From the NCBI GenBank assembly GCA_964444145.1, contig CAYUFU010000010.1, positions 1-59,202 of the forward strand: DNA of 59,202 nt. The letters are read 5' to 3'. Made by a program: the position numbers and the translations under genes. The stretch is from an uncultured Chitinophagales bacterium (GTDB lineage Bacteria > Bacteroidota > Ignavibacteria > UBA10030 > UBA6906). How positions within the stretch are numbered: the first letter of the stretch is position 1; each line of letters starts with the position of its first letter. This document shows positions 6,400 to 53,764 of the stretch, one piece after another. The notes below the pieces were generated by a model that searched no databases, was not told the DNA's origin, and saw nothing but the letters and a program-made list of their open reading frames with translations.

Positions 6400-6409
6400 A
6401 GCTGTTCCA

Positions 6410-7696: not shown

Positions 7697-7725
7697 TTTG
7701 TTCTCCGTGCAAGTGATTATTAAAC

Positions 7726-11963: not shown

Positions 11964-12148
11964 TGTACCGACTTTCTTCCTGGAATCTGCGACGCGGGAT
12001 TTCGTCTGCACATCATACGACCGGTCGCGGCGCATGCCGCTTTCGAGTGCCACGCTCGCAGTTCGGGATGTGGCTTCGCTTCCAGTTCATTCGTTGCTGA
12101 GTGGACCGAATCTCTCCCTTCGATATTTTTCAGGATCCACTTCTGCAT
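11960..12148 (-). CDS. Possible small protein (62 aa) coupled to both neighbours
   Basis: TGATG overlap with the upstream stop and ATGA overlap with the downstream start; no recognisable homology. Confidence 0.3.
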   Translation of the reverse strand: MQKWILKNIEGRDSVHSATNELEAKPHPELRAWHSKAACAATGRMMCRRNPASQIPGRKSVQ

Positions 12149-13410: not shown

Positions 13411-13457
13411 TCTCAGTACGGTGGTTGCCTTTGCAGTAGAGTATGCTCGCTCGTTGC

Positions 13458-15383: not shown

Positions 15384-15412
15384 TTGACTCTCAACTGCAA
15401 ACCCGCTATCTT
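15384..15412 (+). promoter_or_regulatory. Putative sigma70-type promoter
   Basis: TTGACT-N17-TATCTT about 40 nt before the ATG at 15452. Confidence 0.45.
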
Positions 15413-15451
15413 GACAATGAAATTCTCAAAAACTTTAACGAGGAGTGCGGT

Positions 15452-19480: not shown

Positions 19481-19513
19481 AAAAAAAAGCCTCTGCACTA
19501 ATGCAGGGGCTTT
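19481..19513 (-). terminator. Intrinsic terminator at the end of the pilus operon
   Basis: Minus strand aaagcccctgca / tgcagaggc stem followed by T8. Confidence 0.75.
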
Positions 19514-19536: not shown

Positions 19537-20997
19537 TTAGTTACAAAAACCGTTGATGGTCGCGTACGCGTTTCCGTTCTCGCCCTCGACGGAAATCGAG
19601 ATGGTAACGGCGCCGCCCGGGACCAGCGGATTTGGCGTGCCGTCGCTAAGGCGGAAACTGAATTCTGTTGCGCCGGGACCTGCGAAGAGCAAATCTTCCA
19701 GCGTCAGTGCGCCGTCGCGACCAAACGCGAGCAATACTTGGTTGATTGGATCGTTCGGATCCGGCGGCGGCGCTACGCTCGCGAGAATACTGATTCTCGT
19801 CCCAGCCGAAAGCGGATGGCCGAGCGCGTCGGACACCGTGAAGGTGAAGTCTTGAAAGCCGCCGTTTGCTATCGTGAAGATAGATGGCGAGATATTCGAG
19901 ATTGTCGAGCGACCGCTCCAGAGAATAAGTGTACTATCCTGAACGCTAACGCCTCCCTCGCCGATCGTTCTCGCAACAACGTAGTGATAGCCGTTGCCGT
20001 ACTGTTGGGATGCATACTGCCCGAATGGCGCGGGGTTTCCGCTGATGAGGTTGGCGGTTCCTTGTCCGTCCGGGTCGGTGAACACTGTCGGCTGAATGAC
20101 GCCTGCGCTGCTGCGGAAGTAGACGGCTGTGTTTTGGAGAACGGGATTGGAGTACCGATCACCGACGAGCACGCTCACGGGCAAGCGGTTTCCTGCAATG
20201 CCGAGCGTTGGGAAATTATGTTTCAGCGGGGCGATCGTGAAGTGTGCCTGATCTGCAAAGCCGGCGTTGATGACAACGCGGACGGGAGCGGAAAGAATCG
20301 TGCGTGTGCCGACGGTTGCGTTCGCGCGCACCTGCACAACGCCCGAGCGAATGCCGCTGTTGAATGCGATGAAGGCGCGTCCGACGGCATTCGTTGTCAA
20401 TGTCGTTGGCGAAATGTACTCGCCACCGTTGGGTCCGCCTTGGAGCGTGAAGGTAATCGCAATCGCATGTGCCGCGTCAATGGGCAAGCCGAGCGAATCG
20501 CGCGCTTCGAAGCCGAGCACTGCCGTTTCTTGGCCGCCGACGCCGTAGACGGAAATCTGTGTTGGGTTGGCGCCGAGGAAGGCGATGGTCTGGGCGAGTC
20601 CGGACGTACTCCCGCCGCCGCCCACGACTTGCGATTTCGGATTCAGATCAATGTCTTTCAAGAGCGCCTGGTTCGGTTTGACGTTCACACTGATGTCGAG
20701 TGTATCGCGATAGCCTGTGACATTGCGGATCGAAATTTTTGCAACCATGGCGCTGTCAATTTCGAAACGCAACTCAAACTTTCCCTGTGCGTCGGTTGTC
20801 GCAGTTGTCACGACATCTGTTCCCGCTTTTCCTTCGATGACAACACCGCTCAATGGCTGACGGTTGCTTGCGTCCTTCACAAATCCTGTTACGGTCGCGA
20901 CGCCTGCGCTTGGGCCCTGATCGTCATTACTGCATGCGAAGAATGCGCCGGCGCAGACCACAATGCTTGCTGCTCGTACGAGAAATCGCTTCATCAC
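19537..20997 (-). CDS. Lipoprotein with prealbumin/carboxypeptidase-regulatory-like and bacterial Ig-like domains
   Basis: Lipobox FFAC; VTGFVKDA..QPLSGV...TTDAQGKF; TLTTNAVGRA and FTDPDGQGTANL Ig-like turns; ATGA overlap with the secretin stop. Confidence 0.7.
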   Translation of the reverse strand: MMKRFLVRAASIVVCAGAFFACSNDDQGPSAGVATVTGFVKDASNRQPLSGVVIEGKAGTDVVTTATTDAQGKFELRFEIDSAMVAKISIRNVTGYRDTLDISVNVKPNQALLKDIDLNPKSQVVGGGGSTSGLAQTIAFLGANPTQISVYGVGGQETAVLGFEARDSLGLPIDAAHAIAITFTLQGGPNGGEYISPTTLTTNAVGRAFIAFNSGIRSGVVQVRANATVGTRTILSAPVRVVINAGFADQAHFTIAPLKHNFPTLGIAGNRLPVSVLVGDRYSNPVLQNTAVYFRSSAGVIQPTVFTDPDGQGTANLISGNPAPFGQYASQQYGNGYHYVVARTIGEGGVSVQDSTLILWSGRSTISNISPSIFTIANGGFQDFTFTVSDALGHPLSAGTRISILASVAPPPDPNDPINQVLLAFGRDGALTLEDLLFAGPGATEFSFRLSDGTPNPLVPGGAVTISISVEGENGNAYATINGFCN

Positions 20998-22235
20998 TTC
21001 TCCTCCTTCCGACCGGTGACATGTTCATCGAGTCGGTACGCGTCATCTCTCCAGCGCTGGTACACGCCGTCCTCTTTTGCTTTTTGCGTGATGCGCTCTT
21101 GGAGGGTCGGCACCAACTCCGCTTTCAACAGGATGATCAATTCCTTCTTGCGCACCTCTTCTTTGTTGTAGCCGAAGAGGTAGCGCAAACCTAAAACGTA
21201 CCACGGTAAGTCTTTCAAGAACGGCACGCCGACGCGCACCTCCTGCACTTCGTTATTGTACAACCCGCCGATGATCGTTTCTTCGTTGTCGAGCAGCAGC
21301 ACATCGGTTGCGGCTTTCGTTTTGTTGAGGATGATGCTTCCTTGAGCGGGAACGAGGGAGCTTCGCTCGACATCCACTTTGAGGCGAACGAAGTTCACGC
21401 CGTTCTCGACGATGACTTGCGGGGTCACGTCAATGATGGTACCGGTACTGTAAAATTTGTCGAGCAGGTTGCCGGAGAAATCGCGTTCCTTGATGGAGAA
21501 GTCTTGGCCGACTTGAATGCGGCCTTTCTCACCTGAGCGGACGATGAGTTGAGGACCTGAAAGCACTTCACCGAGGTCATGCGCTGCGAACACTCGCGCA
21601 ACGGCAGTCACGTTTGCAAAGCTGAGCTTCGGGGTTGCTTGCACTTCAAAGATATCGCTGGTTACGCGATCGGCGGCGCCGAACGTCGAATTGACGACGA
21701 TGTCTTTGTTGCTCTTCATGAAATTCCAATTGATACCCGCTTCGTCGAGTTTCGAGAGGGAGACTTCGAAGAACACGGCGGAGATTTTGATCTCCCGACT
21801 CTTGAAGGTGGCGGCTTCGCGTTGAATGTCAACGATGGGGGGCGCACCGGCACCGGCGGGCTGATCTTTTCCTTTCGCATCGCCGCCCATTCCGACGATC
21901 TGGAAATAATTCGGATACTCTTCATACCACAAGCTCATCTTGCGGCAGATGGTTTCGAGTGCGGTGCGCCATTGCACGCCGTTGATGTCCACACCGATCG
22001 GCAAATCACGCCGCTCGGGATCGACAACAATCTTTCCGGTGTATTTCTTGCTCACCTCACTGATGGCAGCGAGTGCTTTGTCGAGCGTCGTGGTCGGTGC
22101 GATCGACACCAGCTCACCGGGCGACGTGTATTCTTTCAGCGCGCGCTGTTCTGCCGAATTGAGCGTCTGCGCGAGGCTTGTGATAACGCCGACGCCGATC
22201 AGCGCAAGTGCAACGATAATGGTTCGTGTGTTCAT
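20994..22235 (-). CDS. Short secretin (PilQ/GspD family)
   Basis: IKISAVFFEV, PQLIVRSGEKGRIQVG, GTIIDVTPQV, IIGGLY, GVPFLKDLP...LFG, ELIILLKAELV. Confidence 0.88.
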   Translation of the reverse strand: MNTRTIIVALALIGVGVITSLAQTLNSAEQRALKEYTSPGELVSIAPTTTLDKALAAISEVSKKYTGKIVVDPERRDLPIGVDINGVQWRTALETICRKMSLWYEEYPNYFQIVGMGGDAKGKDQPAGAGAPPIVDIQREAATFKSREIKISAVFFEVSLSKLDEAGINWNFMKSNKDIVVNSTFGAADRVTSDIFEVQATPKLSFANVTAVARVFAAHDLGEVLSGPQLIVRSGEKGRIQVGQDFSIKERDFSGNLLDKFYSTGTIIDVTPQVIVENGVNFVRLKVDVERSSLVPAQGSIILNKTKAATDVLLLDNEETIIGGLYNNEVQEVRVGVPFLKDLPWYVLGLRYLFGYNKEEVRKKELIILLKAELVPTLQERITQKAKEDGVYQRWRDDAYRLDEHVTGRKEEK

Positions 22236-22244
22236 GCTCCCCTC

Positions 22245-23234
22245 TTAGTTTTCAACGTGTTGATCTGGCAATGCCGCAGCAGGTGGTAACGTTAGCGTGT
22301 GCTGAGGCGATCCGTGCTGCGGCGGCGCCATCTGATACAGGTTCGATTGTTGTTGGTCTGCCGAATAGCGTATCTTCAACTCGACGTTTTCGATGATGCC
22401 TCCCTTGTTGAGCGTGCATTCGATCTTTCCTTGTTCCGAAGAAATTCTCGTCACGTACCCGAGATACACTTCATCGCCCGTTTCGAGAATTCTGAATTGC
22501 TGATTTTGATCGAGCACGAACGCCCGTCCGGGAATCACGGCTTTCAAATCCGCGCGCTCGATTTCGACAAGGTTATTCTTGTTCGGCGGCAAGTTCGCAG
22601 TGATGACCGGTTCGAAGGGATTGCGGCTGATGTACGTCGGTTCTCCGTCGTGGCTCGTGTTGGGTTTCGACAACTCAGGTATCGCAGCAAAGAAGGCATG
22701 GACAGTCATCTCGAACGTCACGATCAAATCTCCGGGGCGCTCCTTGTCGGTGAGCGGTAGTTCGACGCCCTTCATGTTGAGAGCGCTGATCTTGAAAAGC
22801 TTGCGGCCGTTTTCGATGTACCAGAGGAATTTGTAGAGATTCGAGAACGCGCCTTCGCCGCGCAAATTGTACGCGTTGTAGCCGTAGTTGCCTCGCGCCT
22901 GCAATCCCTGATAGACCATGTTGAGTTTCAAACCGCCGCTCTTTTCGATGAGCGAACTAAAGTACGCGTACGTTTTCCCGGTGTTGTCCTCCGGCGGAAT
23001 TTCTTTGCTTCGGCTTTCCCAGCGCTTCTTCGTCTCGGCGACGGTTGCGCTCAAGGAGTTGTACTCATGAAGCAGATGGGGCGTGTTGCTCAACTCTTCA
23101 TCAATGCGTTTGATCTCGGCATCAATCGCTGCTTCTTTCTTCGGGAGGTGGAAGGCGCGCATATAGGTTCCTACGCCGACAATCAGCAGGAGCAGAGCGC
23201 CCAAGACGATACTATTTCGAATCTTGTAGGACAT
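22245..23234 (-). CDS. PilO-like inner membrane alignment protein with C-terminal extension
   Basis: N-terminal TM, coiled coil, LRGEGAFSNLYKFLWYIENGRK ferredoxin-like motif, SRNPFEP. Confidence 0.65.
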   Translation of the reverse strand: MSYKIRNSIVLGALLLLIVGVGTYMRAFHLPKKEAAIDAEIKRIDEELSNTPHLLHEYNSLSATVAETKKRWESRSKEIPPEDNTGKTYAYFSSLIEKSGGLKLNMVYQGLQARGNYGYNAYNLRGEGAFSNLYKFLWYIENGRKLFKISALNMKGVELPLTDKERPGDLIVTFEMTVHAFFAAIPELSKPNTSHDGEPTYISRNPFEPVITANLPPNKNNLVEIERADLKAVIPGRAFVLDQNQQFRILETGDEVYLGYVTRISSEQGKIECTLNKGGIIENVELKIRYSADQQQSNLYQMAPPQHGSPQHTLTLPPAAALPDQHVEN

Positions 23235-23249
23235 CGGATCACTTTTTGC

Positions 23250-24809
23250 TTATTTCTTTTCTTCGATACTTGGCACATCAATTTTGTAGCGATAGACGGT
23301 TTCGTCGCGAATCTCCTCCGTCGTCACTTCCTTCAGCTCTGATTTATCGAACACCGCCGAGAGTCTCGGAATGCGCGACCGAGCAGCTGAGAAGCCGTTC
23401 ATGGTGACCTGACCTGTTTCACCTGCGGCAAACTCCGTTAGCCAAATCGAGTTGAGGTCATCTACGCTGTTGCTCAGCCGCGAGAAGGCTTTGCTGAATT
23501 TGTCTGCACCCGGTACGAGCGAATCGTAGAGTGCCATCGAAGCATTGTAGGACGCAAGCTGCTGCTGCAGGCTTTGGATCGAGCCTTGCAGCGCCGCGTT
23601 CTCTGCGATTTGGCTGTTCTTTACATCCAAGACGCTCTGTTTTTCTGTGATCTGTTGCTGCTTTTGTTTGATCTGCGTCGTGAAGAACACCGTGCCGGCA
23701 AAGATGGCACCAAGCAAGAGGTAGCCATGCCACGACAGTTTGAAGACGCGCTGTCCTTCGCGCACCGAGTCGGGTAGGAGATTCGTCGGATAAATCCTTT
23801 TGCTCGATCCGTCGAGGAACTTCCATGCAACCCCGATCGCCGCGGCGTAGTCGGATACCATTTCCTGCACTTCGGAAGGAAGGTGGCTCGTATCCACATT
23901 CGGCGCTCGCAGATAATCTACTTCCTGCTCGGGGAGCAACTCCTGCAAGAAATTCCTCAACTCAATGCGACGGCTCTCTCCTGCGAGGATGATGCGGTTG
24001 ATGCGCTGAATGTTCAGATTATCTTGCTCCAACAGCAAGCGACTGTAGATCATGTTGTGCAAGTTGGGGGAATCGTAGCCTTCGCTGATAATTGGCGCGA
24101 ATTGGTAGAACTGATCACCGCGCATGAAAATCAACCGCGTAAACTCGACGCCGACGTAGACCAGTACCGAGACTTCTTCCGGCTGCATTTCGTAATTCAG
24201 CCGGACCATACTCATGAGCGAGATATCCGAACTGTCTATTCCTGCAATCGTTGGAAGGCGATTGCCGAGAAAGCCTTTGATGTTTTCGAGGTGATTGAGC
24301 AGTGACATGCCCTCTTCACGCACGACACAGAGGATGCCGTTTTCATTCGTGGGAATCGAATCCACCGCGTCCGGCGTCGGTTGAAACGTTCGGGTGTTTT
24401 TCAACTCTTCGATGATGCGGAGCTTCAGCTTCTTGCCTTGCAGCCCGAAGTTGCTCTCGAATTGGTGATAATAAATCGAAGGTTCAGAAATGCAGTACGC
24501 CAACGAGTAACTTTTCGGTTTGTACTGTGAAAGAAGCCCGAGCAGAACAGCGTTGTTGTCTTCGCCGCTTGCCTCAGAGGCAGGCAGTGCCATCGTTTCC
24601 AATTCCGGCAACTTGAACGGGTCTTTGTCATCGCCGACGACAGCGGCGGCTTCGGTTGGCTTGCGCTCTTCCAGTTTCGTGGCGAGTGTCGCGGATTTCA
24701 GCTCCTCGATGAAAACCTTGCCGCCCTTCTTTGCGAGACGCGCAAGTTTCACATCGGCGCCATCCACGAACAGACCGATGACGGATTTGTTACCTCCGAT
24801 AAATCTCAT
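23250..24809 (-). CDS. PilM-PilN fusion protein
   Basis: N-terminal IGLFVDGADVKLA actin-like start, VYVGVEFT, RIILAGES, AAAIGVA, then TM, coiled coil and IWLTEF...VTMNGFS PilN-like domain. Confidence 0.7.
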   Translation of the reverse strand: MRFIGGNKSVIGLFVDGADVKLARLAKKGGKVFIEELKSATLATKLEERKPTEAAAVVGDDKDPFKLPELETMALPASEASGEDNNAVLLGLLSQYKPKSYSLAYCISEPSIYYHQFESNFGLQGKKLKLRIIEELKNTRTFQPTPDAVDSIPTNENGILCVVREEGMSLLNHLENIKGFLGNRLPTIAGIDSSDISLMSMVRLNYEMQPEEVSVLVYVGVEFTRLIFMRGDQFYQFAPIISEGYDSPNLHNMIYSRLLLEQDNLNIQRINRIILAGESRRIELRNFLQELLPEQEVDYLRAPNVDTSHLPSEVQEMVSDYAAAIGVAWKFLDGSSKRIYPTNLLPDSVREGQRVFKLSWHGYLLLGAIFAGTVFFTTQIKQKQQQITEKQSVLDVKNSQIAENAALQGSIQSLQQQLASYNASMALYDSLVPGADKFSKAFSRLSNSVDDLNSIWLTEFAAGETGQVTMNGFSAARSRIPRLSAVFDKSELKEVTTEEIRDETVYRYKIDVPSIEEKK

Positions 24810-24864
24810 ACGTAGCTTTCAGTGTTGACTATTATTGTTCATCTGCTGAGAATCCTGGTCACAC

Positions 24865-26097
24865 TCAATCGCCAATCGCGTTCGAGTTTAGGATTTGCTG
24901 CAAACGCCGCTTGTTATTGGCGTTTACCATTGCCGTATCCAGTGAAATTCGTTTCTGCAGGTACAATCGTTTCAAATCCTGTTCCAATGTTATCATGCCG
25001 ATGTCGCCTGATTCTGCCATCATCTGATAAATTTCACCCGTATTGTTATTCTTGATTGCCGCGCGCACCGATGGAATTGCGAGCATTACTTCTTTTGCAA
25101 GCGTTACCTTCCCATCGAGAGTCGGGACGAGGCGCTGTGAGACTACGCTGCTCAACGTATCGCCTAAGCGAAGACGCACACGCTCTTGCTCGATGGGAGG
25201 CACTTCGCCGATGATACGATCAATGGTTTCGACTGCGGAGGCAGTGTGCAGTGTCGAGAACACTTTGTGACCGCTGTCGGTGATTTCGAGCGCAGTGAGA
25301 ATCGTATCCGGGTCTCGCATTTCACCGATGACGATGATGTCCGGGTCTTGACGCAGCGATTGTACGGCACCTTCTTTGAACGAGAGCACGTCGCGCCCAA
25401 CTTCGCGATGACGGATGATGCAGCGGTCGGGCTTGTGCACGTATTCGATGGGCGATGCAATGATGACGATATGGGCGTCTGTCGAATGGTTGTTCGCGTC
25501 GATGATCGTATCGAGTGTCGAGCTTTTGCCCGATCCCGTAATGCCGGTAATGAGATTCAATCCTTGTGGTGTATGTGCGAGGCTCAGCGCCTTGGTCACG
25601 TTCGGATGAAACTCGAGATTCTTGAACGGTCGCACCGTCGCGTTGATTGCGCGCATGTTCAGCGCGAGATGATCGAGATCGAAATAGGCATCCGCACGAA
25701 ACCGATTCATCGTCTCACCCTCAATTACCATGTAGGAGAAATCGAGGTTGCGGTTCTCGTACAAAAACAACCGCTGACGGTCAACGAGAATGCTCTGGAT
25801 CAGCAGACTCATTTCATCGGCACTGAACGTCGGAAGTGTCGTATCCGGTTTCTTGTCGCCGTAGATGCGATACCAAATGTTGCCCTTCGTGCCGAAGCCT
25901 CCGAGATCAATGTCGGAGGCGTTCATTTTTTGCATGCGGAGCAGAATCGAATCCGTCAATTTGCGCAGCGCTGAACGCTCGGCAGGCGACATCTTGCTTG
26001 CGAGGTCGCCGATGAGCATTTGGCGCTCGACGCCGGGTGCCGTCACGGGCAGGCTTGCCGCAAGTTGCCGCAAGGTTTGTACTGCTGTTTCAGTCAT
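24865..26097 (-). CDS. pilT: PilT/PilU-family retraction ATPase
   Basis: ITGITGSGKSST, SLRQDPDIIVIGEMRD, GHKVFSTLHT, VVSQRLVP, GMITLEQDL; alternative TTG start at 26109. Confidence 0.85.
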   Translation of the reverse strand: MTETAVQTLRQLAASLPVTAPGVERQMLIGDLASKMSPAERSALRKLTDSILLRMQKMNASDIDLGGFGTKGNIWYRIYGDKKPDTTLPTFSADEMSLLIQSILVDRQRLFLYENRNLDFSYMVIEGETMNRFRADAYFDLDHLALNMRAINATVRPFKNLEFHPNVTKALSLAHTPQGLNLITGITGSGKSSTLDTIIDANNHSTDAHIVIIASPIEYVHKPDRCIIRHREVGRDVLSFKEGAVQSLRQDPDIIVIGEMRDPDTILTALEITDSGHKVFSTLHTASAVETIDRIIGEVPPIEQERVRLRLGDTLSSVVSQRLVPTLDGKVTLAKEVMLAIPSVRAAIKNNNTGEIYQMMAESGDIGMITLEQDLKRLYLQKRISLDTAMVNANNKRRLQQILNSNAIGD

Positions 26098-26105
26098 TGC
26101 TGTTG

Positions 26106-27893
26106 TCAATCATCCGTTGTGCTTGCCGCAATTTCTTCCAACGTTGTCACGCCGCTCTTGATCCGCTCGATGCCGGAGCGGCGCAGCGTCCACATGCCGT
26201 CTTTTATCGCCTGGTCCCGGATTTGTTCTTCGTCCACCTCCTTACCAGCCTTCGCAATCATGACACGAATACTCTTCGTGAAATAAAGTGCCTCGTGAAT
26301 TGCCGCGCGTCCCTTGTACCCGCCGTTGCATTTGTCGCAGCCCACGGCTTCATAGAAAACCGGATTCACCAGTTCGTCTTCACGAAAGCCGAACGAGAGA
26401 TACATCTCCGTATCAATATCATCGGCAGGAATCTGTCGCTTACACACCTTGCATAACGTCCGAATGAGGCGCTGCGCAACAATGACGTTGATGGCATACG
26501 CAATCAAGAATGGCTCAATGCCCATCTTGTACAGGCGCGAGACTGCGCTCGGCGCATCGTTCGTGTGCAATGTGGAAAACGTCAGGTGGCCTGTGTTCGC
26601 AAGTTTGATTGCGATTTCCGCCGTTGTTTTATCGCGCATCTCGCCGACGAGCACGATGTCGGGGTCGTGACGGAGAATGCCGCGAATCGCTGACTCGAAA
26701 TTCATCTTCGGCCCAATCTTCAACTGCCGCGAACCCTTGATGATGTACTCCACCGGCTCTTCGACCGTCAAGACGTTTACTGTCGGGTCAATGACCGCGT
26801 GCAGGGCGGCGACCAGCGTCGTGCTCTTGCCGCTTCCTGTCGGTCCAGTCAGAATAACGATGCCCTGCGGTTTCGTGATGGCCTTTTTGAACGACTCCAT
26901 CGTAGGACCCTGCAAGCCGAGCTTGTTCAAATCGGTGATCACCTTCCGATCATCGAGCACGCGAATAACGATGCTCTCATACTTGTGCTTGAACTCCGTC
27001 CCGACCATCGGCATGATGGAAACGCGAAACCGAATGCGATGATCATCAATGACCCGTTGGATGAAGCCGTCCTGCGCCGCCTCGCGTTCGAAGCGGTCAA
27101 CGTTCTTCGAGCGATCCTTCACCACTGCCGCGATCGCTTCGGGCAACGTGTTCTCCTGCGCGTGCCAGAGCTGCAGGTTGCCGTCGAGGCGAAACCACAG
27201 CTCGGTGCGGTTACCGTCCTTCGGAACGATGTGGATGTCACTTACACCTTGCCGCACAGCTTCGACGAGCGCCCCCTCGAAGAGATTGACGAGCGCACTC
27301 TTATTGATCTCGGCTTCGAGCACGCCCTCGTCCAGCGTGCTTTCATCCTCCTGTACCTGTACGTCCTGCTGGTTATTCTCTAACTGTCGGAGGAATTCGT
27401 TTTCGACAGGGACGATCTGTTCGAGTAAGCGTTTGATGCTCTCGAGGCGGCTGTACACCACCTCATACTTTTTTGCGTTGAAGTTTCTGGCGATCAGAGG
27501 AAGCCGCCGATCGGTTGGATCGGCGGCGGAAATGATGAGTTTGTCGGATTGGCGCTCGTCGTACTTGAACGGAAGCATCTTCGCTTCCATCAGCATAGTG
27601 CGTCCCGCCTCAGGCAGTGCGTCAACGAGCTTGCGCATGAAGTCAATCCGGGACTTGTCCACGGTTTCATCATCGAGCTTCAGCTCGCGAAAGGCATAGA
27701 GTTCGGCGACCTCTTTGAACACCGCGTCATGATCCGCGCCGAAATCGTAGACGAGAATCTGACCCAAATTGCGACGGTTCTTTCCTCCATCAGTCTCTTT
27801 GACTTTGAGAGATTTTTCCAGCGTCTCATAGTCAATGATACCCTTCTTGAGAAGGGTGAACCCAATCTTGTCGGTAATGTCAACAGCCGCCAT
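26106..27893 (-). CDS. pilB: PilB/GspE assembly ATPase (copy 1)
   Basis: SDIHIVP, AQDGFI, LTGPTGSGKSTTL, ILRHDPDIVLVGEMRD, GHLTFSTLHTNDA, CKVC/CDKC zinc site. Confidence 0.9.
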   Translation of the reverse strand: MAAVDITDKIGFTLLKKGIIDYETLEKSLKVKETDGGKNRRNLGQILVYDFGADHDAVFKEVAELYAFRELKLDDETVDKSRIDFMRKLVDALPEAGRTMLMEAKMLPFKYDERQSDKLIISAADPTDRRLPLIARNFNAKKYEVVYSRLESIKRLLEQIVPVENEFLRQLENNQQDVQVQEDESTLDEGVLEAEINKSALVNLFEGALVEAVRQGVSDIHIVPKDGNRTELWFRLDGNLQLWHAQENTLPEAIAAVVKDRSKNVDRFEREAAQDGFIQRVIDDHRIRFRVSIMPMVGTEFKHKYESIVIRVLDDRKVITDLNKLGLQGPTMESFKKAITKPQGIVILTGPTGSGKSTTLVAALHAVIDPTVNVLTVEEPVEYIIKGSRQLKIGPKMNFESAIRGILRHDPDIVLVGEMRDKTTAEIAIKLANTGHLTFSTLHTNDAPSAVSRLYKMGIEPFLIAYAINVIVAQRLIRTLCKVCKRQIPADDIDTEMYLSFGFREDELVNPVFYEAVGCDKCNGGYKGRAAIHEALYFTKSIRVMIAKAGKEVDEEQIRDQAIKDGMWTLRRSGIERIKSGVTTLEEIAASTTDD

Positions 27894-27922
27894 GCGCAAT
27901 CAGGGAGTTGGCGTTTATGTTC

Positions 27923-29299
27923 TTACGTCATGCGCGTCGTCGTGTGTACCGACGTCGCGCCCATCGCGGGATTCTTCGGACGCACGGTCGCAGTCTCGGA
28001 CGAGACGATCGTCAACGCGGTCAACACAATCATGATGACCATCGAAATCACGACTTGGATGTAGTCAATGGCGTTTCGCATTTTGTACGACGTTTCCTTC
28101 TCGTAGTATTCCGCAAGCTGTAGCGCCGTGTTCTTCACCGTTCCAGTTTCCGCGCCGGAGTGGAATCGAGAGATCGCGGTTTTCGTGAACACGTTGGCAG
28201 CTTCGAACGCTTCCGTGATGCCCGCGCCTTTTTGCGTCATCATCGGTAGTGCGATGGTCTTGATCTGATGTTCCATATATTTGTTGCCGCAGGCTTCCGC
28301 CGCCATCCGAATGACTTCGATGTTTTCGCCCGCGCCGCTGTATAACGAATAGAAGACACGACAGAAAATCTCGATGTTGCTCTTGTGCATCAACGATCCG
28401 ATGATCGGGACCTTCCAAATGTAACTGTCGAGGATAAAGCGCCCTTTCTCCGTCGTGAAAAATTTTACCGCCGCGACGATGGGGACGACCGTGCAGATCA
28501 CAATCATCATGGAGTTTTCGATGATGAAATCGCTCAGGTCCATCGTTGCCGCGGTCATCGGCGGCAATTCGATGCCAAACTTGCGGAACAACCCCGCCGT
28601 CGCGGGAAAGATGTAGCCGACGTAATAGATGACCGCACCGAACAACACGACGAGCGTTACGAGCGGCATGATGAGCGCGCTTTTCAAATTCTTTTTGAAC
28701 TCGGCTTGGCGTTCGAGGAATTTTGCAGTGCTATCGTAAATCTCGGCCATATTCCCGCTCTTCGAAGCGAGACCCAACATGTGAGCCGTAAAGCGGCCGA
28801 GCACCGCTTCATGCTTGACGAACGCGCGCTCGCTGTCCTTACCCTGTTTCAGCTCCGTGTTGATTTCCTTAATCGTCTCGCGCAGCGTTCTGTTCTGAAT
28901 GTCGTTCACGAGCAACTGCATGATTTCGTTGAACGGCAGTTTCTGCCGAATCAAATCCGCGCTGACGCGGACGAACGTGACGATCTCGCCGGACGGCGGT
29001 TTGGTTTTCACCTCGAAGAGACGCTTCTGCACGCGCAGAACGCGGTAGCCCATTTTTTGCAGCGCCTCCTCGACCTCGCCTTTGGTGAATGCCTTTTGCT
29101 CACCGGTAATCGGCTTCTCCGTTCCGCGCTGAACTTTGTAGATCCACGTCGCGCGTGGAACGATGTTCAGAATTTTGAAATTGCGCGCAGTCGCCATCTG
29201 GCTTGCTTTCTGCTTCGCCGCCTTCAGCGACTCCGCTTCCAGCACTCCTTGCAGCGGCTTGCCTTCCGTGGTAACACCTTCGATTCTGAATTCGGGCAT
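27923..29299 (-). CDS. pilC: PilC/GspF platform protein
   Basis: N-terminal EGVTTEGKPLQGVLEAES, two GspF domains, FGIELPPMT, KVPIIGSL. Confidence 0.88.
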   Translation of the reverse strand: MPEFRIEGVTTEGKPLQGVLEAESLKAAKQKASQMATARNFKILNIVPRATWIYKVQRGTEKPITGEQKAFTKGEVEEALQKMGYRVLRVQKRLFEVKTKPPSGEIVTFVRVSADLIRQKLPFNEIMQLLVNDIQNRTLRETIKEINTELKQGKDSERAFVKHEAVLGRFTAHMLGLASKSGNMAEIYDSTAKFLERQAEFKKNLKSALIMPLVTLVVLFGAVIYYVGYIFPATAGLFRKFGIELPPMTAATMDLSDFIIENSMMIVICTVVPIVAAVKFFTTEKGRFILDSYIWKVPIIGSLMHKSNIEIFCRVFYSLYSGAGENIEVIRMAAEACGNKYMEHQIKTIALPMMTQKGAGITEAFEAANVFTKTAISRFHSGAETGTVKNTALQLAEYYEKETSYKMRNAIDYIQVVISMVIMIVLTALTIVSSETATVRPKNPAMGATSVHTTTRMT

Positions 29300-29371
29300 C
29301 TTCGTTCCTTTATTTAGACCAGCTTGTCCCTACCTGTATGTTCCTTGGTCGGCAGAGTCTGTCTGTACCTA

Positions 29372-29440
29372 CAAAACAAAATCCCCCCGCGGCTTCGCGT
29401 GTCCCCACCAAGCAAACACGTGTTACGCCATCGGGGGGAG
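29372..29440 (-). terminator. Probable terminator after the pilin cluster
   Basis: Minus strand ccccccg...cgggggg stem with a long internal loop, followed by attttgtttt. Confidence 0.45.
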
Positions 29441-29462
29441 GTCGTGAGTTGTAATGTCAAGC

Positions 29463-29867
29463 CTAATTCAATGTTTCAATGTACGTGCTCTCGGGCCAGA
29501 CTGTTACTTGTACCTGTACGCTCGTAGCTCCGTCGTTTCCTTTGTTGTTTCCTGTTCCCGTGATTATGACAAACGCATCGGACGCCGCCGCCGGATCGGG
29601 GGAAAGAACGTATGTTCCGTTCGCGTTCGTCGCGTTCACGGCAATATCGGCGAAGCGCAAGCCGTTGAACGAATATCCGCCGCCGCGCATCGCTTCGGGA
29701 CGGCGATAATATTTTTGCGCCTGCACGGCAAAATTCGCGAGGTCATTCGCGATCGAATCGCGATTGGTCGAAGATGCCTGATCCTTGAACATGTCCAGAC
29801 CCACGGCAATCATAATGCCGACGATTATTACGCCGACCAAAATCAAAAGTAATTGCTGTGACCCCAT
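29463..29867 (-). CDS. Non-canonical type IV pilin-like protein (divergent copy)
   Basis: MGSQQ plus hydrophobic helix, GI..FKD and QKYY in canonical pilin register; located in the T4P locus. Confidence 0.75.
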   Translation of the reverse strand: MGSQQLLLILVGVIIVGIMIAVGLDMFKDQASSTNRDSIANDLANFAVQAQKYYRRPEAMRGGGYSFNGLRFADIAVNATNANGTYVLSPDPAAASDAFVIITGTGNNKGNDGATSVQVQVTVWPESTYIETLN

Positions 29868-30045
29868 AACTTAATCTCTTGTTTCCTATTCTTCCCCCAC
29901 CTACGTCCTGTGCCGATCGTCCAACAGGCTCTCTCGGATTTCAGAGAGGACCTTGCACATCCCGGCGAAGCAGCTTTTCGCACGTTCATCAGGAGAATTC
30001 TATTTGCCTCTATCTCCAGTGAGCGCGACGATCAGATCAGCATCA

Positions 30046-30456
30046 TTAGTTATTCTGCAACATTCCCGTCGAGTCGGCGAAAACGTAGATGCTCATATTG
30101 AGCGGATTCGTATTGTCCGTTCCTTTCTCCTTGCCAATGCCACGAATCACGACGCTTGAGGAAGTTCCCGCAGTTTGGACGGAATATGTACCGTTTGCGT
30201 TCGATGACTTTGAGGTCAGCTTTGCCAGACCCGCCGCATCTGCCGTCAAACCGACGAAGGAGTTTCCGCCGCCGCTCAACGCCGTTGGACGGCGATAGTA
30301 CTGCTGGGCGCGTGATGCAAGGTTCACGAGATCGTTCGTCACCGCATCGCGGTTCGCCGACACTGCGTTATCCTGAAACATCGTGATACCGACCGCTACT
30401 GCGATGCCGACCACGATAACGCCGAGGATGATGAGAAGCAATTGCTGTTGACCCAT
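30046..30456 (-). CDS. Non-canonical type IV pilin-like protein (tandem copy 2)
   Basis: MGQQQLLLIILGVIVVGIAVAVGITMFQD...QQYY; only 3 aa differ from 30553-30963. Confidence 0.8.
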   Translation of the reverse strand: MGQQQLLLIILGVIVVGIAVAVGITMFQDNAVSANRDAVTNDLVNLASRAQQYYRRPTALSGGGNSFVGLTADAAGLAKLTSKSSNANGTYSVQTAGTSSSVVIRGIGKEKGTDNTNPLNMSIYVFADSTGMLQNN

Positions 30457-30515
30457 AGTGCCTGCCTAGCCTTTGTTAAAGTGTTTATGCTACAATTGAG
30501 ATAACCATCAAACAC

Positions 30516-30543
30516 AGTTGCGCTCTCCGAAGAGAGCGCAACT
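30516..30543 (-). other. Perfect 12-bp hairpin with cUUCGg tetraloop between the duplicated pilin genes
   Basis: agttgcgctctc-TTCG-gagagcgcaact on the minus strand, 9 nt after the stop. Confidence 0.7.
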
Positions 30544-30552
30544 CGAAACGAA

Positions 30553-30963
30553 TTAGTTGTTCTGGAGAACACCGGTTGAATCGGCAAAGACGTACATGCT
30601 CATGTTGATCGGGTTCGTATTGTCCGTTCCTTTCTCCTTGCCAATGCCACGAATCACGACGCTCGAGGAAGTTCCCGCAGTTTGGACGGAATATGTACCG
30701 TTTGCGTTCGATGACTTTGAGGTCAGCTTTGCCAGACCCGCCGCATCTGCCGTCAAACCGACGAAGGAGTTTCCGCCGCCGCTCAACGCCGTTGGACGGC
30801 GATAGTACTGCTGGGCGCGTGATGCAAGGTTCACGAGATCGTTCGTCACCGCATCGCGGTTCGCCGACACTGCGTTATCCTGAAACATCGTGATACCGAC
30901 CGCTACTGCGATGCCGACCACGATAACGCCGAGGATGATGAGGAGAAGTTGTTGTTGACCCAT
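30553..30963 (-). CDS. Non-canonical type IV pilin-like protein (tandem copy 1, probable major pilin)
   Basis: Same sequence features as copy 2; first in the cluster, with an A/C-rich leader and sigma54-like site upstream. Confidence 0.8.
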   Translation of the reverse strand: MGQQQLLLIILGVIVVGIAVAVGITMFQDNAVSANRDAVTNDLVNLASRAQQYYRRPTALSGGGNSFVGLTADAAGLAKLTSKSSNANGTYSVQTAGTSSSVVIRGIGKEKGTDNTNPINMSMYVFADSTGVLQNN

Positions 30964-31054
30964 TGTGTTGTTCCTTTATGTTGTTATTGGGTTATGGTTT
31001 GGTTGTTTTGGTATTTTGGTTCTTACGCTTTGTTCCTTCGACATCATCTTACTT

Positions 31055-31071
31055 TTCAACCACTGTGCCAA
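31055..31071 (-). promoter_or_regulatory. Sigma54-like -24/-12 promoter upstream of the pilin cluster
   Basis: TTGGCAC-AGTGG-TTGAA versus consensus TGGCAC-N5-TTGCW (A instead of C at -12). Confidence 0.45.
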
Positions 31072-31176
31072 CACTCTGTTGCCCGTACTGCCACACTTTC
31101 GCCGCTGAGCATCGTTGCAGAGAAGAAAGTTTGACTTCGCAGGTCATTTTTTCCTCTCCCAATATTGCACGGTGAT

Positions 31177-33033
31177 TCAGTCGAGAGCAGTTGCGGAAAC
31201 GACTTCATCAACACTCGAGACTCCTTGGCGCGCCAGCGCGAGGCCCGAGCCGCGCAGGGTGCGCATCCCATCTTTGATTGCGGCTCGATTGATCGCATCT
31301 GTATCAACTTTCTCACCGCTGTTGATGATGATCTCGCGAATCTCCGGCGTAACATACAGCGTTTCGTGTATTGCGCGTCTTCCCTTGAATCCACCGACGC
31401 AATGCGGACAGCCAACGGGTTCATAGAGCTGGAGATCCGGAATTTCCTCTTCCGTGAAGCCGGACTTGAGCAGCATCTTCGTATTCAACTCTTTCACCGG
31501 ACGCTTACAGCGATCACACAACTTGCGGACGAGGCGCTGCGCGACAACGATGTTCAACGCTTGCGCTATCAGGAACGGCTCGACGCCAATCTTGAACAGG
31601 CGCGACACAACGCTCGCTGCATCGTTTGTGTGCAAGGTCGAGAATGTCAAGTGCCCCGTGTTCGCAAGCTTGATGGCAATGTCCGCCGTCGCACGGTCGC
31701 GAATTTCGCCGACCATGACAATGTCCGGATCGTGACGAAGGATTGCGCGAATGGCGTCATCGAATGATAGTTTGTGGTTCAGCTTCACCTGTCGCGCACC
31801 CTCGATTAAATACTCGACAGGGTCTTCGACAGTAATCGTGCAGACCGAAGGGTTCATTACCGTGCGCAGTGCCGCGACCAGTGTCGTGCTTTTTCCGCTT
31901 CCCGTAGGACCCGTGAGAATAACGATGCCGTGAGGTTTGGTGATCGCCTCTTTGAACCGTTCGAGAGAGTACGGGTCAAGACCAATGGATTCGAGCGAGA
32001 CGGAGGCGTGCGCGTCTTTCAAAATACGGATCACCACCGACTCGAATTTCCCCGTCATCTCCTTCGAAATTATCGGAAGAACCGACATGCGAAAGCGAAC
32101 AAGCTGACCGTCAATCATCTTCTGTGCCTGGCCATCTTGTGCTGCCATGCGCTCAAAGCGATCGAGACCGATGCCGCGTCCCTTCACGACGGCGACGACC
32201 GCTTCTGCGCGCGTGTCTTCGATCGTATACCAGTTCATCAGCTCGCCGTCAATGCGGAAGTTGACCTCCGTTTTCCGCGCACCCTTCGGAACGACATGAA
32301 TATCGCTTGCTCCGCTTCTCACCGCGTCCGAAAAGATGTTGTTGACGAGATTAATGAGCTGGCTGCTTTCGATCTCACGATCGAGGGCGCTATCCTGCGA
32401 GCCATCGCCGTCCTCCAAGAATCCATCACCGACCGATGTGATGCCGGGAGCAGTTTGATTCTTCTCGTTGGTGATGAGCTGCCACCACTCGTCCCAATCG
32501 CTTTCTTTGAGGTAGCAGATCTCGTGCTTGGCATAAGGGAATGCTCTCGCAACTTCGCTCACTTCACGGTCGGTCGGATTGGGAGTAACGACGAGAATCT
32601 TGTCTGACGTGCCCTCGGCAGTTTCGAAGGGGAGAACTTTGTGCCGCATCGCAAGCCGGTAGGCTGGCCCGGGCAACTCTTCGATCATCTTCATGACCGT
32701 GGCATTGTCGAACCGGCGGGGGTTACGTTCATTGATGTCAACGATACGAAATGAATAAAACTGCGCAAGCTCGCGTGCCAGCAAGTCCTTGCTGATTGCA
32801 AACTCATCGGCGAGGATATCGTTGATGCGGCGCTTGTCGGATCCCTTATGCTCCTGCACATATTCCGAGGCTTCCGTTGCGATTTTGTCGCTCAGGACCC
32901 GGTTGCGAACCAAATGCTCGAGGAACGCCGACGCGTATTTTTTCTTCGGCGCCTGTCCCTCCGGCATGCGGCTCTGTGATCCCGGCTTTCCGAATTGGAG
33001 GTTCGGTTTCAAATTGTCGCTCACGATCGGCAT
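31177..33033 (-). CDS. PilB/GspE assembly ATPase (copy 2)
   Basis: ASDIHVVP, AQDGQA, LTGPTGSGKSTTL, ILRHDPDIVMVGEIRD, GHLTFSTLHTNDA, CDRC/CPHC. Confidence 0.9.
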   Translation of the reverse strand: MPIVSDNLKPNLQFGKPGSQSRMPEGQAPKKKYASAFLEHLVRNRVLSDKIATEASEYVQEHKGSDKRRINDILADEFAISKDLLARELAQFYSFRIVDINERNPRRFDNATVMKMIEELPGPAYRLAMRHKVLPFETAEGTSDKILVVTPNPTDREVSEVARAFPYAKHEICYLKESDWDEWWQLITNEKNQTAPGITSVGDGFLEDGDGSQDSALDREIESSQLINLVNNIFSDAVRSGASDIHVVPKGARKTEVNFRIDGELMNWYTIEDTRAEAVVAVVKGRGIGLDRFERMAAQDGQAQKMIDGQLVRFRMSVLPIISKEMTGKFESVVIRILKDAHASVSLESIGLDPYSLERFKEAITKPHGIVILTGPTGSGKSTTLVAALRTVMNPSVCTITVEDPVEYLIEGARQVKLNHKLSFDDAIRAILRHDPDIVMVGEIRDRATADIAIKLANTGHLTFSTLHTNDAASVVSRLFKIGVEPFLIAQALNIVVAQRLVRKLCDRCKRPVKELNTKMLLKSGFTEEEIPDLQLYEPVGCPHCVGGFKGRRAIHETLYVTPEIREIIINSGEKVDTDAINRAAIKDGMRTLRGSGLALARQGVSSVDEVVSATALD

Positions 33034-33037
33034 AATG

Positions 33038-33409
33038 CTACGCGCTCATCGCACTCTGCAGTTTGTTCAACGTCGTGATGATCTCCGTTACTGGCGACGT
33101 CTTGCTGATAAAGTAGTCCACCGCCGAGTCTTCCAATGCCTGCTGGGTGTAAGGGTCATCATAGCCGGACATGAAGATGAAGGGCATATCGCGAAAGCCC
33201 AAAAACTCTCGGACATAGCTATGGAACCGAATGCCATCAAGCGTCGGCATAAACACGTCTGAGATGACGACATCAACGGATTGATTCTCCAATACTTCGC
33301 GCGCCGCCTTTCCATTGTCTGCAATCAAGACAGTGTATCCACTGCCTGTAAGGAGTTGTTCCATGACTTTCAGGAAATCCTCGTTATCGTCAACAATCAG
33401 AACCTTCAT
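33038..33409 (-). CDS. Single-domain response regulator (CheY-like)
   Basis: KVLIVDD, DVVISDVFMP phospho-Asp, FMSG, YFISK. Confidence 0.9.
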   Translation of the reverse strand: MKVLIVDDNEDFLKVMEQLLTGSGYTVLIADNGKAAREVLENQSVDVVISDVFMPTLDGIRFHSYVREFLGFRDMPFIFMSGYDDPYTQQALEDSAVDYFISKTSPVTEIITTLNKLQSAMSA

Positions 33410-33831: not shown

Positions 33832-35376
33832 GTGGAGTTCGACGGAATTGATTTGAAACTGCTCGCGCTAACGTTGCTCTTCAGTTTGTCTGCATTTTGC
33901 CAGTCCGAAACACCCTCTCGCAACAGCCCCGTCTTCAAGAACTATAAGCCGCCCACGGCAACACCGCGCATCGAGCATTCGGATGCGACGTACCAGATGT
34001 GGGAGGGGTTTCGCGTGTTGCAGCAGGCGAACGCTGGTGATGTTGTTTCGCAATTTGAGGTGAGCATTCGGTATCTCACGGGTCGAGGGTTCAAAGCCGA
34101 TACGGCGAAGGCGGCGTACTGGACAAGACGCGCGGCAGAGAAGAATCATCTCCTTGCGCGATTCAATCTCGGCATTTTTCAGTTTAACGGGTGGGGGACG
34201 GATTGGAATCCGTTCGAGTCGTACCGCAATTTTCGGTTTGCTGCTGAGGGAAACATTCCCGAGGCGCAATATGCAGTTGCACAGTTTCTCACCGAAAACC
34301 TCGTCGTGCCAGCCAATTGGCAGGAAGCCTTCCAGTGGGTGAAGCTCGCAGCAGATTCCGGTTATGCACCTGCAAAAGCGATCTTGCCGGCGTTCGAGCG
34401 TCGCGGCTACCGCAGTGATTCATCTGCAGCGCAACGCACACGGGGCGAACCTGAAGCATCTACACGCGGAGCAATCCAGCTTTTGTTCATCAACTTTTCC
34501 CCCGATACAATCAAGGTATCTCCGGACTCCGTGTTGGTTGACGACCTGCTCAAAGCTGCGGCATTGACAGACAATGCTGCCATGCGCGCTGTTGCCGAAT
34601 CCCTTGCCGTGGAGCAGGGAAGGATAATAACAGACTCCGCCACGTTTCGCCACCTCATGTCGTTCGCAGAGGCGGGCAGTCCGGAAGCGCTGACACTGAT
34701 TGCGCGTTGTTACGAAAAAGGATATCGGATCACGAGCGATACTCTCACAGCGGCAATGCACTATATTCGCGCTATACGCCTTGATTCGCGCCGTGCGCCG
34801 CGACTCTTGCACACTCTCATTCAAAGCAAGAACTTCTTCCCGACTCTGCAAACGAAGGTCAATGAGGGAAACGCCGACGCGCAGTACATATGGTCATGCT
34901 TGATCGCGTTGGGATTTGACAGGCAGCTCACGGACGCGCAGGCATTGCGGATGCTCGAGCGCGCTGCTGCCGCGCATCACCCACACGCGTTGGTGGAGTT
35001 GGGCTTGTGTTATTACACTGGACGATGGGTGAATAGGAACGAAGGAAAGGCAAAGATGCAATGGCAGAAAGCAATAGCTGTCGGCAGTGCGGAAGCGAGA
35101 GTCCGGCTCGCCGTTGCAAAACTACGCGGGCGAGATAGAGACTACGCGTACGCGCTCGCGGCTCTGCGTCCCGCAGTCCGCGAGGGATCGGCACTTGCGG
35201 AATTTGCTCTCGGCTATTGTTTTGAGACGGGGAGTGGCGTGCCAAAGAGAATGGAAGAAGCGGCACGGCTCTATCGCAGCAGTGCCCAGCGCGGCAGTCA
35301 GGATGCACTACGTGCGCTGCGCCGAATACATGATAGCCTACGGCCGCGCGACAAACAGTTTCAGCTTGACGACTGA
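33832..35376 (+). CDS. Exported Sel1-like repeat protein
   Basis: Signal peptide; repeated AQY.VA/AAYW..RAAE, ALVELGLCYYTGRWV and AEFALGYCFETGSGVPK Sel1 motifs. Confidence 0.85.
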   Translation: MEFDGIDLKLLALTLLFSLSAFCQSETPSRNSPVFKNYKPPTATPRIEHSDATYQMWEGFRVLQQANAGDVVSQFEVSIRYLTGRGFKADTAKAAYWTRRAAEKNHLLARFNLGIFQFNGWGTDWNPFESYRNFRFAAEGNIPEAQYAVAQFLTENLVVPANWQEAFQWVKLAADSGYAPAKAILPAFERRGYRSDSSAAQRTRGEPEASTRGAIQLLFINFSPDTIKVSPDSVLVDDLLKAAALTDNAAMRAVAESLAVEQGRIITDSATFRHLMSFAEAGSPEALTLIARCYEKGYRITSDTLTAAMHYIRAIRLDSRRAPRLLHTLIQSKNFFPTLQTKVNEGNADAQYIWSCLIALGFDRQLTDAQALRMLERAAAAHHPHALVELGLCYYTGRWVNRNEGKAKMQWQKAIAVGSAEARVRLAVAKLRGRDRDYAYALAALRPAVREGSALAEFALGYCFETGSGVPKRMEEAARLYRSSAQRGSQDALRALRRIHDSLRPRDKQFQLDD

Positions 35377-53741: not shown

Positions 53742-53764
53742 TCGTCAATCTCCATGTTCAATGG

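Follow-up and report, generated by a model that had tools for sequence, protein, structure and literature searches.

To our knowledge, textbooks treat leader cleavage by an A24 prepilin peptidase and a glutamate at position 5 (Glu5) of the mature pilin as universal in type IV pili, type II secretion, Com, Tad and archaeal filaments. The peptidase with its class III signal peptide counts as one of four components common to the whole type IV filament superfamily. The described systems of the Fibrobacteres-Chlorobi-Bacteroidetes (FCB) lineage include a Bacteroidetes cluster referred to as a 'type II secretion system' (T2SS) or as type IVa pilus (T4aP)-like, which is exemplified by CHU_3191-3201 of Cytophaga hutchinsonii and Fjoh_0611-0622 of Flavobacterium johnsoniae (PMC5553014, PMC6668835). 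The Cytophaga cluster has a Peptidase_A24 gene (CHU_3197), a GspG-type major pseudopilin and canonical minor pseudopilins and is devoid of PilT (PMC5553014); in phylogenies, the Bacteroidetes 'T2SS' groups with T4aP, not with T2SS (PMC6668835, PMC5553014). The genome of Melioribacter roseus is reported to have neither pilD nor a canonical pilA (PMC3534657). The system considered here lies at positions 19537-33409 of a 59,202-nt stretch of DNA from an uncultured Chitinophagales bacterium (the window; GCA_964444145.1, contig CAYUFU010000010.1, forward-strand positions 1-59,202). It is probably a retractile T4aP-like machine in which the pilins escape processing by a PilD-type peptidase and carry Gln5 in place of Glu5.

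The window encodes three pilins of one family (PilA1, PilA2 and PilA3), which begin M-G-(Q/S)-Q-Q-L-L-L-I. A leader peptide is impossible for these pilins, because an in-frame stop lies two to four codons upstream of each ATG (pilA1, TAA at four codons; pilA2, TAG at four codons; pilA3, TAA at two codons). The maximal open reading frame (ORF) starts at the same Met in 110 family ORFs from 83 other loci, with a stop 0-28 codons upstream and no start between. About 110 of the 150 best family representatives begin M-G-x-Q-Q at residue 1, and among 53 diverse representatives, Met1 and Gln5 are present without exception, Gly2 at a frequency of 98% and Gln4 at 94%. Basic residues are absent from the first 26 positions of all 53 representatives, and acidic residues are missing from the same positions in 48. 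Set against a class III signal peptide, the N-terminus retains a highly conserved hydrophobic alpha1-N, but the leader, the basic residues and Glu5 are all missing, and no match to the Pfam N_methyl model is detected in the window pilins or the 53 members. Whatever the processing, at most four residues precede the invariant Gln and no basic leader is present.

Conservation of the pilins is highest at the N-terminus, with the frequency of the commonest residue declining from 0.77 (residues 1-27) to 0.39 (residues 89-136) among the 53 representatives. This gradient is typical of type IV pilins and opposite to that of Sec signal peptides. The AlphaFold model of PilA1 (pLDDT 83) predicts a 'lollipop' composed of a helix (residues 2-55) and a four-stranded antiparallel sheet. 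The family accounts for 3,133 matches in a 90%-identity database and 1,975 clusters at 50% identity (E <= 1e-3). No Pfam or NCBIfam model matches it above cut-off; JGI independently labels some of the homologues 'PilE'. The pilin genes are located between PilB and PilC in one to four copies per cluster. In the window, PilA1 and PilA2 share 98% amino acid identity, with a 300-nt direct repeat (95% identity, 507-nt spacing), and PilA3 is 49% identical to PilA1 and has orthologues in related loci. Three longer proteins, P0121 (381 aa), P0131 (376 aa) and P0221 (581 aa), have three to four tandem matches to the pilin profile and are either multi-pilin-domain fusions or mis-called tandem genes.

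The pilin genes belong to a set of 12 ORFs that the original prediction had placed on one strand. All 12 are present, on the minus strand, and are given here in order of transcription with the associated signals:

33038-33409, minus strand: stand-alone CheY-like response regulator, 123 aa (Pfam Response_reg, 7e-23), 4 nt upstream of PilB2
31177-33033, minus strand: PilB2, second assembly-type ATPase, 618 aa (T2SSE, 8e-105)
31055-31070, minus strand: sigma-54-type promoter, TGGCACAGTGGTTGAA, beginning 107 nt upstream of the pilA1 ATG
30553-30963, minus strand: pilA1, leaderless pilin, 136 aa, beginning MGQQQLLLIILGVIVVGIAVAVGITMF
30516-30543, minus strand: GC-rich hairpin with a 12-bp stem, directly 3' of pilA1
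30046-30456, minus strand: pilA2, tandem duplicate of pilA1, 136 aa
29463-29867, minus strand: pilA3, second pilin type, 134 aa, beginning MGSQQLLLI
27923-29299, minus strand: PilC platform protein, 458 aa (T2SSF, 6e-28, in two stretches)
26106-27899, minus strand: PilB1 assembly ATPase of the conserved core, 597 aa (T2SSE, 4e-97)
24865-26109, minus strand: PilT retraction ATPase, 414 aa, with an N-terminal extension of ~50 aa (TIGR01420, 311.8 bits, slightly under the cut-off of 319.1)
23250-24809, minus strand: PilN-containing fusion, 519 aa, without a Pfam match
22245-23234, minus strand: PilO-like protein, 329 aa, without a Pfam match
20994-22235, minus strand: short secretin, 413 aa (PF00263, 1.9e-26, residues 221-375)
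19537-20997, minus strand: immunoglobulin (Ig)-domain lipoprotein, 486 aa (Big_1, Invasin_D3, CarboxypepD_reg)
19493-19506, minus strand: weak terminator-like hairpin and T-run at the operon end, with a stem of only 5 bp

Intergenic distances within the operon range from -4 to 213 nt, and the 4-nt overlaps of PilB1/PilT and of secretin/lipoprotein suggest translational coupling. The region is likely to form one operon, or two transcription units, that encode a retractile type IVa-like pilus. Its neighbours are unrelated and include UvrA downstream and a Sel1-repeat protein and a hybrid kinase with eight PAS domains upstream.

The motor proteins resemble those of T4aP. PilB1 has its closest solved structures in the PilB proteins of Myxococcus xanthus and Geobacter (~1e-84 to 1e-86), and PilB2, a paralogue with 47% identity to PilB1, displays Walker A, Walker B and His boxes and a CxxC...CxxC motif in its translation. 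The TIGR02538 (PilB) scores are 425 bits for PilB2 and 416 bits for PilB1 (cut-off 675.65), and PilB scores above GspE for both ATPases in NCBIfam. The retraction motor claimed in the original prediction is borne out, as PilT is closest to bona fide PilT proteins of Aquifex, Geobacter and Pseudomonas aeruginosa (6e-64 to 2e-58), with PilB/GspE structures matching at only ~1e-17. The best NCBIfam matches of PilC are the Thermus-type PilC (4e-42) and GspF (8e-38), both under cut-off (144.7 bits against 700 for PilC). All NCBIfam equivalog scores fall under their cut-offs, and by this measure the PilB and PilC of the window are divergent relatives, not equivalogs. The secretin is closest in solved structure to P. 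aeruginosa PilQ (1.6e-10) and scores 70.7 bits with TIGR02515, under the cut-off of 284. It matches neither AMIN nor Secretin_N in the Pfam search, and HofQ models are among its weak NCBIfam matches.

The N-terminal regions of both PilB proteins have weak MshEN-type Pfam matches. In PilB1, residues ~10-33 (window 27830-27899) read DKIGFTLLKKGIIDYETLEKSLKVKE, a stretch kept in relatives (e.g., DKLGYTLLKKGIIDYETLE in locus L036). It resembles the cyclic di-GMP-binding MshEN motif, RLGxxLLxxGLIxxxxLxxALxxQ, with Lys replacing the key Arg. The Pfam MshEN match of PilB1 is weak and lies further downstream (residues 99-162, E 0.005).

The 519-aa fusion is organized as a cytoplasmic domain of ~345 aa, a transmembrane helix, a coiled coil and a PilN domain. 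Its C-terminal third is assigned as PilN because a profile of 16 orthologues matches M. xanthus PilN (3jc8_Na) at 5.9e-8 over positions 360-483; weak matches to Pfam PilN also occur in 6 of the 16 members. The N-terminal domain is putatively PilM-like, by position only. Thus, of the 'PilM-N fusion' in the original prediction, the PilN half stands and the PilM half finds no supporting match. The overall architecture may be likened to that of GspL.

The PilO-like protein includes a transmembrane helix, a coiled coil, an alpha-beta-beta repeat core, a linker and a conserved C-terminal beta-domain (residues ~229-289) that keeps the motif GDxVYLGY...LNKGG. Its orthologue profile matches M. xanthus PilO at 0.0067, and the C-terminus matches the DotF C-terminus at 0.02. 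When its AlphaFold model, which is of low confidence, is searched with Foldseek, the top matches are M. xanthus PilO (3jc8_Oa, 3.1e-4) and P. aeruginosa PilO (3e-3 to 6e-3), in weak agreement with the sequence profile. In the same model, the beta-domain superimposes on the DotF C-domain over 48 aligned residues (root-mean-square deviation 1.3 A, TMt 0.67). The absence of PilP had been predicted, and no separate PilP gene is present in the window cluster. Functional absence is doubtful, because the conserved beta-domain sits where a PilP-type secretin-contacting domain is expected; on weak evidence, this domain may be a candidate substitute for PilP. The protein ends in a Gln/Pro-rich tail of ~40 residues (residues 290-329, window 22245-22364; SADQQQSNLYQMAPPQHGSPQHTLTLPPAAALPDQHVEN) that is missing in 12 aligned orthologues.

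The cluster is widespread. In a search of one genome per species, at least 508 stretches of DNA encode members of the pilin family, with hosts in Ignavibacteriota, Bacteroidota, Calditrichota, Kryptonia, Zixibacteria and KSB1, and the core order pilin(s)-PilC-PilB-PilT-PilMN-PilO-secretin is observed in ~40 loci. Chance does not account for this arrangement, which is shared by dozens of independent genomes. The pair of response regulator and PilB2 upstream of the pilins is restricted to closer relatives in the Ignavibacteriota. The order of all 12 genes, followed by UvrA, is identical in three related loci (L079-L081), where the Ig-domain lipoprotein has the same position, and GCA_040290295.1 has a near-identical 12-gene arrangement. 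The core cluster is also found in two cultured organisms, Stygiobacter electus (L075) and M. roseus P3M-2 (CP003557.1:671269-691655), with the pilin of the latter (MROS_0599) annotated as 'hypothetical'. The system is not unique to the organism of the window and is present, unrecognised, in published genomes such as that of M. roseus. The prediction of a divergent FCB-lineage type IV pilus subtype with different subunit chemistry agrees with the spread of the cluster across FCB phyla and with its leaderless, Glu5-less pilins. Literature searches on leaderless pilins, the MGQQQLL motif and the type IV filaments of Bacteroidota/Ignavibacteria retrieve no description of the pilin family; the genes are already public, and the family and its implications appear undescribed.

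The Ig-domain lipoprotein, in which the lipobox ...AFFAC is read in translation, does not follow the secretin in M. roseus or Stygiobacter and has no relative in the PDB search; from its distribution, it is regarded as a clade-specific accessory. In the type strain of M. roseus (L083:17333-18576, CP003557.1), the secretin is called as two ORFs of 74 and 338 aa. A metagenome contig with a pilin identical to that of M. roseus (L082:17331-18575) has one intact secretin gene of 414 aa. The split may represent a frameshift or a pseudogene in the laboratory strain and, if real, matters for any piliation experiment.

A prepilin peptidase is missing from the window, as the original prediction had noted: no GxGD-type polytopic peptidase is encoded there, and no A24 peptidase is detected among the Pfam-scanned flanking genes (a few short or overlapping ORFs fall outside the scan). 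Likewise, no Peptidase_A24 is found among 28 Pfam-scanned polytopic ORFs in the flanks of 83 related loci. Together with the window, these represent 84 screened loci and 1.34 Mb. The only polytopic flank ORF to contain GxGD, L028:12621-13052, is a DoxX protein and not a peptidase. No canonical prepilin is detected in the flanks over the same 1.34 Mb; three motifs of canonical prepilin type in related loci appear to be spurious. The 'missing' pilA of M. roseus is explained by a cluster pilin of the leaderless family, and its missing pilD is consistent with pilins that have no leader.

Among the window ORFs of at least 40 aa, none contains the prepilin motif G[F..][ST]xxE, and the window has no PilY1-like gene and no minor-pilin set, in keeping with the predicted absence of a GFxxxE minor pilin and a PilY1-like adhesin. 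Many relatives encode a second pilin-like family of 160-205 aa with the N-terminus M-[GNST]-x-G-Q-x-L-L, located between PilC and PilB or after the secretin (e.g., L005:14223-14726, L013:14309-14836, L014:14366-14932, L034:19356-19847 and ~20 further loci). These proteins are candidate minor pilins, and neither the window nor L079-L081 encodes one. Position 5, numbered from the predicted start codon, is Gln in 24 of 25 and Glu in one (MGQRELLL), and one ORF has an extra residue. Position 2 is N, S or T in 7 of the 22 ORFs counted. Variation at this position in a family that keeps Gln5 speaks against Gly2 as a universal -1 cleavage residue.

Transcription of the pilins appears to involve sigma-54. 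Of 75 loci, 46 have an element of the -24/-12 type (TGGCAC-N5-TTG) within 200 nt (mostly 80-110 nt) upstream of the first pilin gene; the corresponding figures are 3.3% for 200-nt windows of background sequence and 2 of 31 for the downstream copies of the pilin gene. Control of pilA by sigma-54 is classical for T4aP. No enhancer-binding protein is encoded in the window. The hairpin downstream of pilA1 likely serves as an attenuator or mRNA stabiliser. A sigma-70 promoter scan reveals no enrichment over shuffles, terminator-like sites are not enriched in the region (17 found, 18.2 expected from shuffles), and the Bacteroidetes -7 motif TAnnTTTG is upstream of only 12 of 106 pilin genes, a raw count without a background. 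Two-component genes are repeatedly found beside the cluster: the window has its response regulator, Bacteroidota-labelled loci have one that follows the secretin, and M. roseus has a hybrid kinase in that position.

In the proposed mechanism, the sigma-54 promoter would drive transcription of PilA1 and PilA2 as the major subunits and of PilA3 as a second subunit type. The pilins would be translated from M-G-Q-Q-Q and inserted as such into the inner membrane; unprocessed insertion is proposed because no class III leader is present and conservation of the pilins peaks in their first 27 residues. PilB1 and the clade-specific paralogue PilB2 would power extension on the PilC platform, and PilT would power retraction. 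The PilN-containing fusion and the PilO-like protein would form the inner-membrane alignment complex, with the C-terminal beta-domain of the latter probably touching the secretin in place of PilP, and the short secretin would serve as the outer-membrane pore. We infer that the pilins polymerise into filaments without PilD-type cleavage or N-methylation, that the invariant Gln5 takes over from Glu5 and that the beta-domain is equivalent to PilP. The biological function would most likely be surface adhesion or twitching. It is quite possible, if short of probable, that the cluster represents a phylum-spanning lineage of machines with never-processed pilins, in which the uncharged Gln5, perhaps with a blocked or formylated N-terminus, replaces the salt bridge between Glu5 and the N-terminal amine.

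Several observations weigh against this mechanism. Residues 1-345 of the fusion have no PilM or FtsA match in single-sequence and profile PDB searches or by Pfam on the 16 members, and the model of the PilO-like protein has a pLDDT of only 54.6. The pilin model has no significant Foldseek match in the PDB (best E 0.65), and the 53-pilin profile is sub-significant with PDB sequences (Geobacter PilA, 0.28; Thermus PilA5, 0.46). Alignments to these Geobacter and Thermus pilins place Gln5 ambiguously relative to Glu5, with offsets of 1 to 3, and an alignment-based equation of the two residues was set aside for these conflicting registers. The Pfam ComP_DUS model matches a window pilin at 1.3e-3, under its cut-off, and is weak in 6 of the 53 members. 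As to the peptidase, the search covers 59 kb in the organism of the window, the report of M. roseus without pilD rests on a 2013 annotation, and some Ignavibacteriales genomes carry canonical Geobacter-like pilins (PMC7399161), such that a trans-acting peptidase may exist elsewhere in some hosts. Finally, the 98% conservation of Gly2 fits A24 cleavage of a two-residue leader as well as removal of Met by methionine aminopeptidase.

The last of these points leads to an unlikely alternative in which the machine is the same and 'MG' is an ultra-short leader, cut after Gly2 by an A24 peptidase encoded elsewhere, to leave a mature pilin that starts with Gln and is possibly cyclised or methylated. 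Gly(-1) is the key determinant for PilD, which counts for this alternative given the near-invariant Gly2 of the major family; Gly2 also favours Met removal by methionine aminopeptidase. The MSH (mannose-sensitive haemagglutinin) loci, moreover, are without a peptidase gene and rely on the enzyme of a different system (Denise et al. 2019, PMC6668835), and the Ignavibacteriales with canonical pilins probably have PilD. Such a 'leader' would, however, be without a basic residue and is at odds with the N, S or T at position 2 in part of the second family. In addition, neither the 1.34 Mb around the 84 loci nor, as reported, the genome of M. roseus has the gene for the enzyme, and Glu at +5 would still be missing, leaving the subunit chemistry non-canonical.

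Quite unlikely is the proposal that the machine is a secretion or DNA-uptake device with a short pseudopilus or competence pilus, comparable to the Bacteroidetes 'T2SS' or to HofQ/ComE-type uptake. Classical T2SS are without PilT; competence pili do use PilT. Here, a dedicated PilT is part of the conserved cluster core. The short length of the secretin (413 aa), its lack of a Pfam AMIN match and its weak HofQ matches are compatible with such a device, as are the weak ComP_DUS matches and the branching of the Bacteroidetes 'T2SS' with T4aP (PMC6668835). By contrast, no comEA, comEC or dprA is detected among the Pfam-scanned genes of the window, and a multi-copy, sigma-54-driven pilin gene that precedes a strong hairpin points to a structural subunit expressed at a high level. 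Identity of the window system with the Cytophaga 'T2SS' is rejected, because the latter encodes a GspG-type pseudopilin and its own Peptidase_A24 but not PilT (PMC5553014). Very improbable is that the MGQQQ proteins are small bitopic or Sec-exported periplasmic proteins and not subunits, and only adjoin a canonical T4aP that has its true pilins, minor pilins and PilD encoded elsewhere: the lack of a significant match to solved pilins and an AxG-type site (A21-V22-G23) that, as read from sequence, could in principle suit signal peptidase I are outweighed by a conservation gradient opposite to that of Sec signal peptides, an n-region without positive charge (0 of 53), a PilB-PilC position fixed in dozens of genomes with no canonical pilin in any flank, the predicted pilin-lollipop topology, a sigma-54 promoter upstream as with classical pilA, and the report of M. 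roseus without a canonical pilA.

Just upstream of the pilus operon are the Sel1-repeat protein (33832-35376, plus strand) and the adjoining hybrid histidine kinase of 1,528 aa, with about eight PAS domains and a receiver (35361-39947, minus strand). A MacB-type tripartite efflux cluster (3067-9057, minus strand) is composed of two MacB_PCD/FtsX permeases, an ABC ATPase, an HlyD-family adaptor and an OEP/TolC-like outer-membrane factor. Genes that look like purine/ureide catabolism (42164-42508, 45878-47311 and 49641-52089, minus strand) encode HIUase/transthyretin, DUF6986 (3e-176), allantoicase and an amidohydrolase; genes for a SulP/STAS transporter and a Na:alanine symporter lie among them. 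A protein with a type IX secretion system plug first domain (PF17116, 8e-11; 12148-13482, minus strand) is consistent with an FCB-lineage host that has this secretion system, and the same gene adjoins the cluster in L079-L081. ORFs of 570, 252, 305, 330, 159 and 176 aa (40313-42025, minus strand; 14406-15164, minus strand; 15296-16213, plus strand; 52269-54295, minus strand) remain unmatched in Pfam at 1e-4 to 1e-5. Of these, the final three are directly downstream, on the same strand, of a gene for an extracytoplasmic function (ECF)-type sigma-70 factor (54270-54833) and may encode its anti-sigma or partner proteins.

The pilins without a leader or Glu5 account for ~2,000 sequence clusters across several FCB phyla, which abound in sediments, groundwater, hot springs and bioreactors. 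Should the pilins polymerise without processing, then membrane orientation, extraction by PilC/PilB and charge neutralisation in the filament core would need rethinking, and the peptidase and class III signal peptide would be dispensable in the type IV filament superfamily. Pilins of this kind also account for the genome papers on Ignavibacteria that report pilB, pilC, pilT and pilQ without pilA or pilD. For annotation pipelines (Pfam, NCBIfam, TXSScan), the family is a missing model. The question is directly testable, as cultured, genome-sequenced hosts exist in M. roseus (complete genome) and S. electus.

Of the known systems, the Cytophaga/Flavobacterium cluster is similar in being an FCB-lineage filament system whose divergent PilM/N/O/P-like genes need sensitive detection. 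Compared to T2SS, the window system has no T2SSG/GspG match and includes PilT. The MSH system (Vibrio MshA) is similar in that its loci are without a prepilin peptidase gene (PMC6668835) and in the weak MshEN matches of the window PilB proteins. By contrast, MSH pilins have normal class III leaders and Glu5 and depend on the peptidase of a co-resident system, and MSH loci have no in-cluster PilT and differ in accessory genes. Resemblance to the Akkermansia cluster Amuc_1098-1102 is limited to weak NCBIfam matches of the fusion to the PilM-like Amuc_1101 (2.5e-7; 29.9 bits against a cut-off of 650) and of the secretin to the Amuc_1098 family (4e-10; 38.3 bits against a cut-off of 750), and to the Amuc_1100 core among the Foldseek matches of the low-confidence PilO-like model (E 0.17); the Akkermansia cluster differs in phylum and gene set.

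Archaeal EppA-type pilins (DUF361), as reported by Szabo et al. 2007, resemble the window pilins in a conserved Gln close to the N-terminus of the mature protein (at +1) and in the lack of Glu5. The archaeal pilins have basic leaders that end in Gly/Ala and need a dedicated A24 peptidase, EppA, whereas the window pilins have no basic leader and have Gln as residue 4, just before the invariant Gln. Compared to the T4aP of P. aeruginosa, M. xanthus, Thermus and Geobacter, the window pilins have no leader, no Gly(-1)/Phe(+1) site and Gln5 for Glu5, and the cluster is without pilD, canonical minor pilins, PilY1 and a separate PilP. The window system also differs in the fusion of PilN to a large cytoplasmic domain, the extra C-terminal beta-domain of the PilO-like protein and the 413-aa secretin. 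The features in common with T4aP are the motors, the PilN and putative PilO homologues, the PilQ-like secretin, the sigma-54 promoter of the pilin genes and a predicted lollipop pilin with a highly conserved hydrophobic N-terminal helix.

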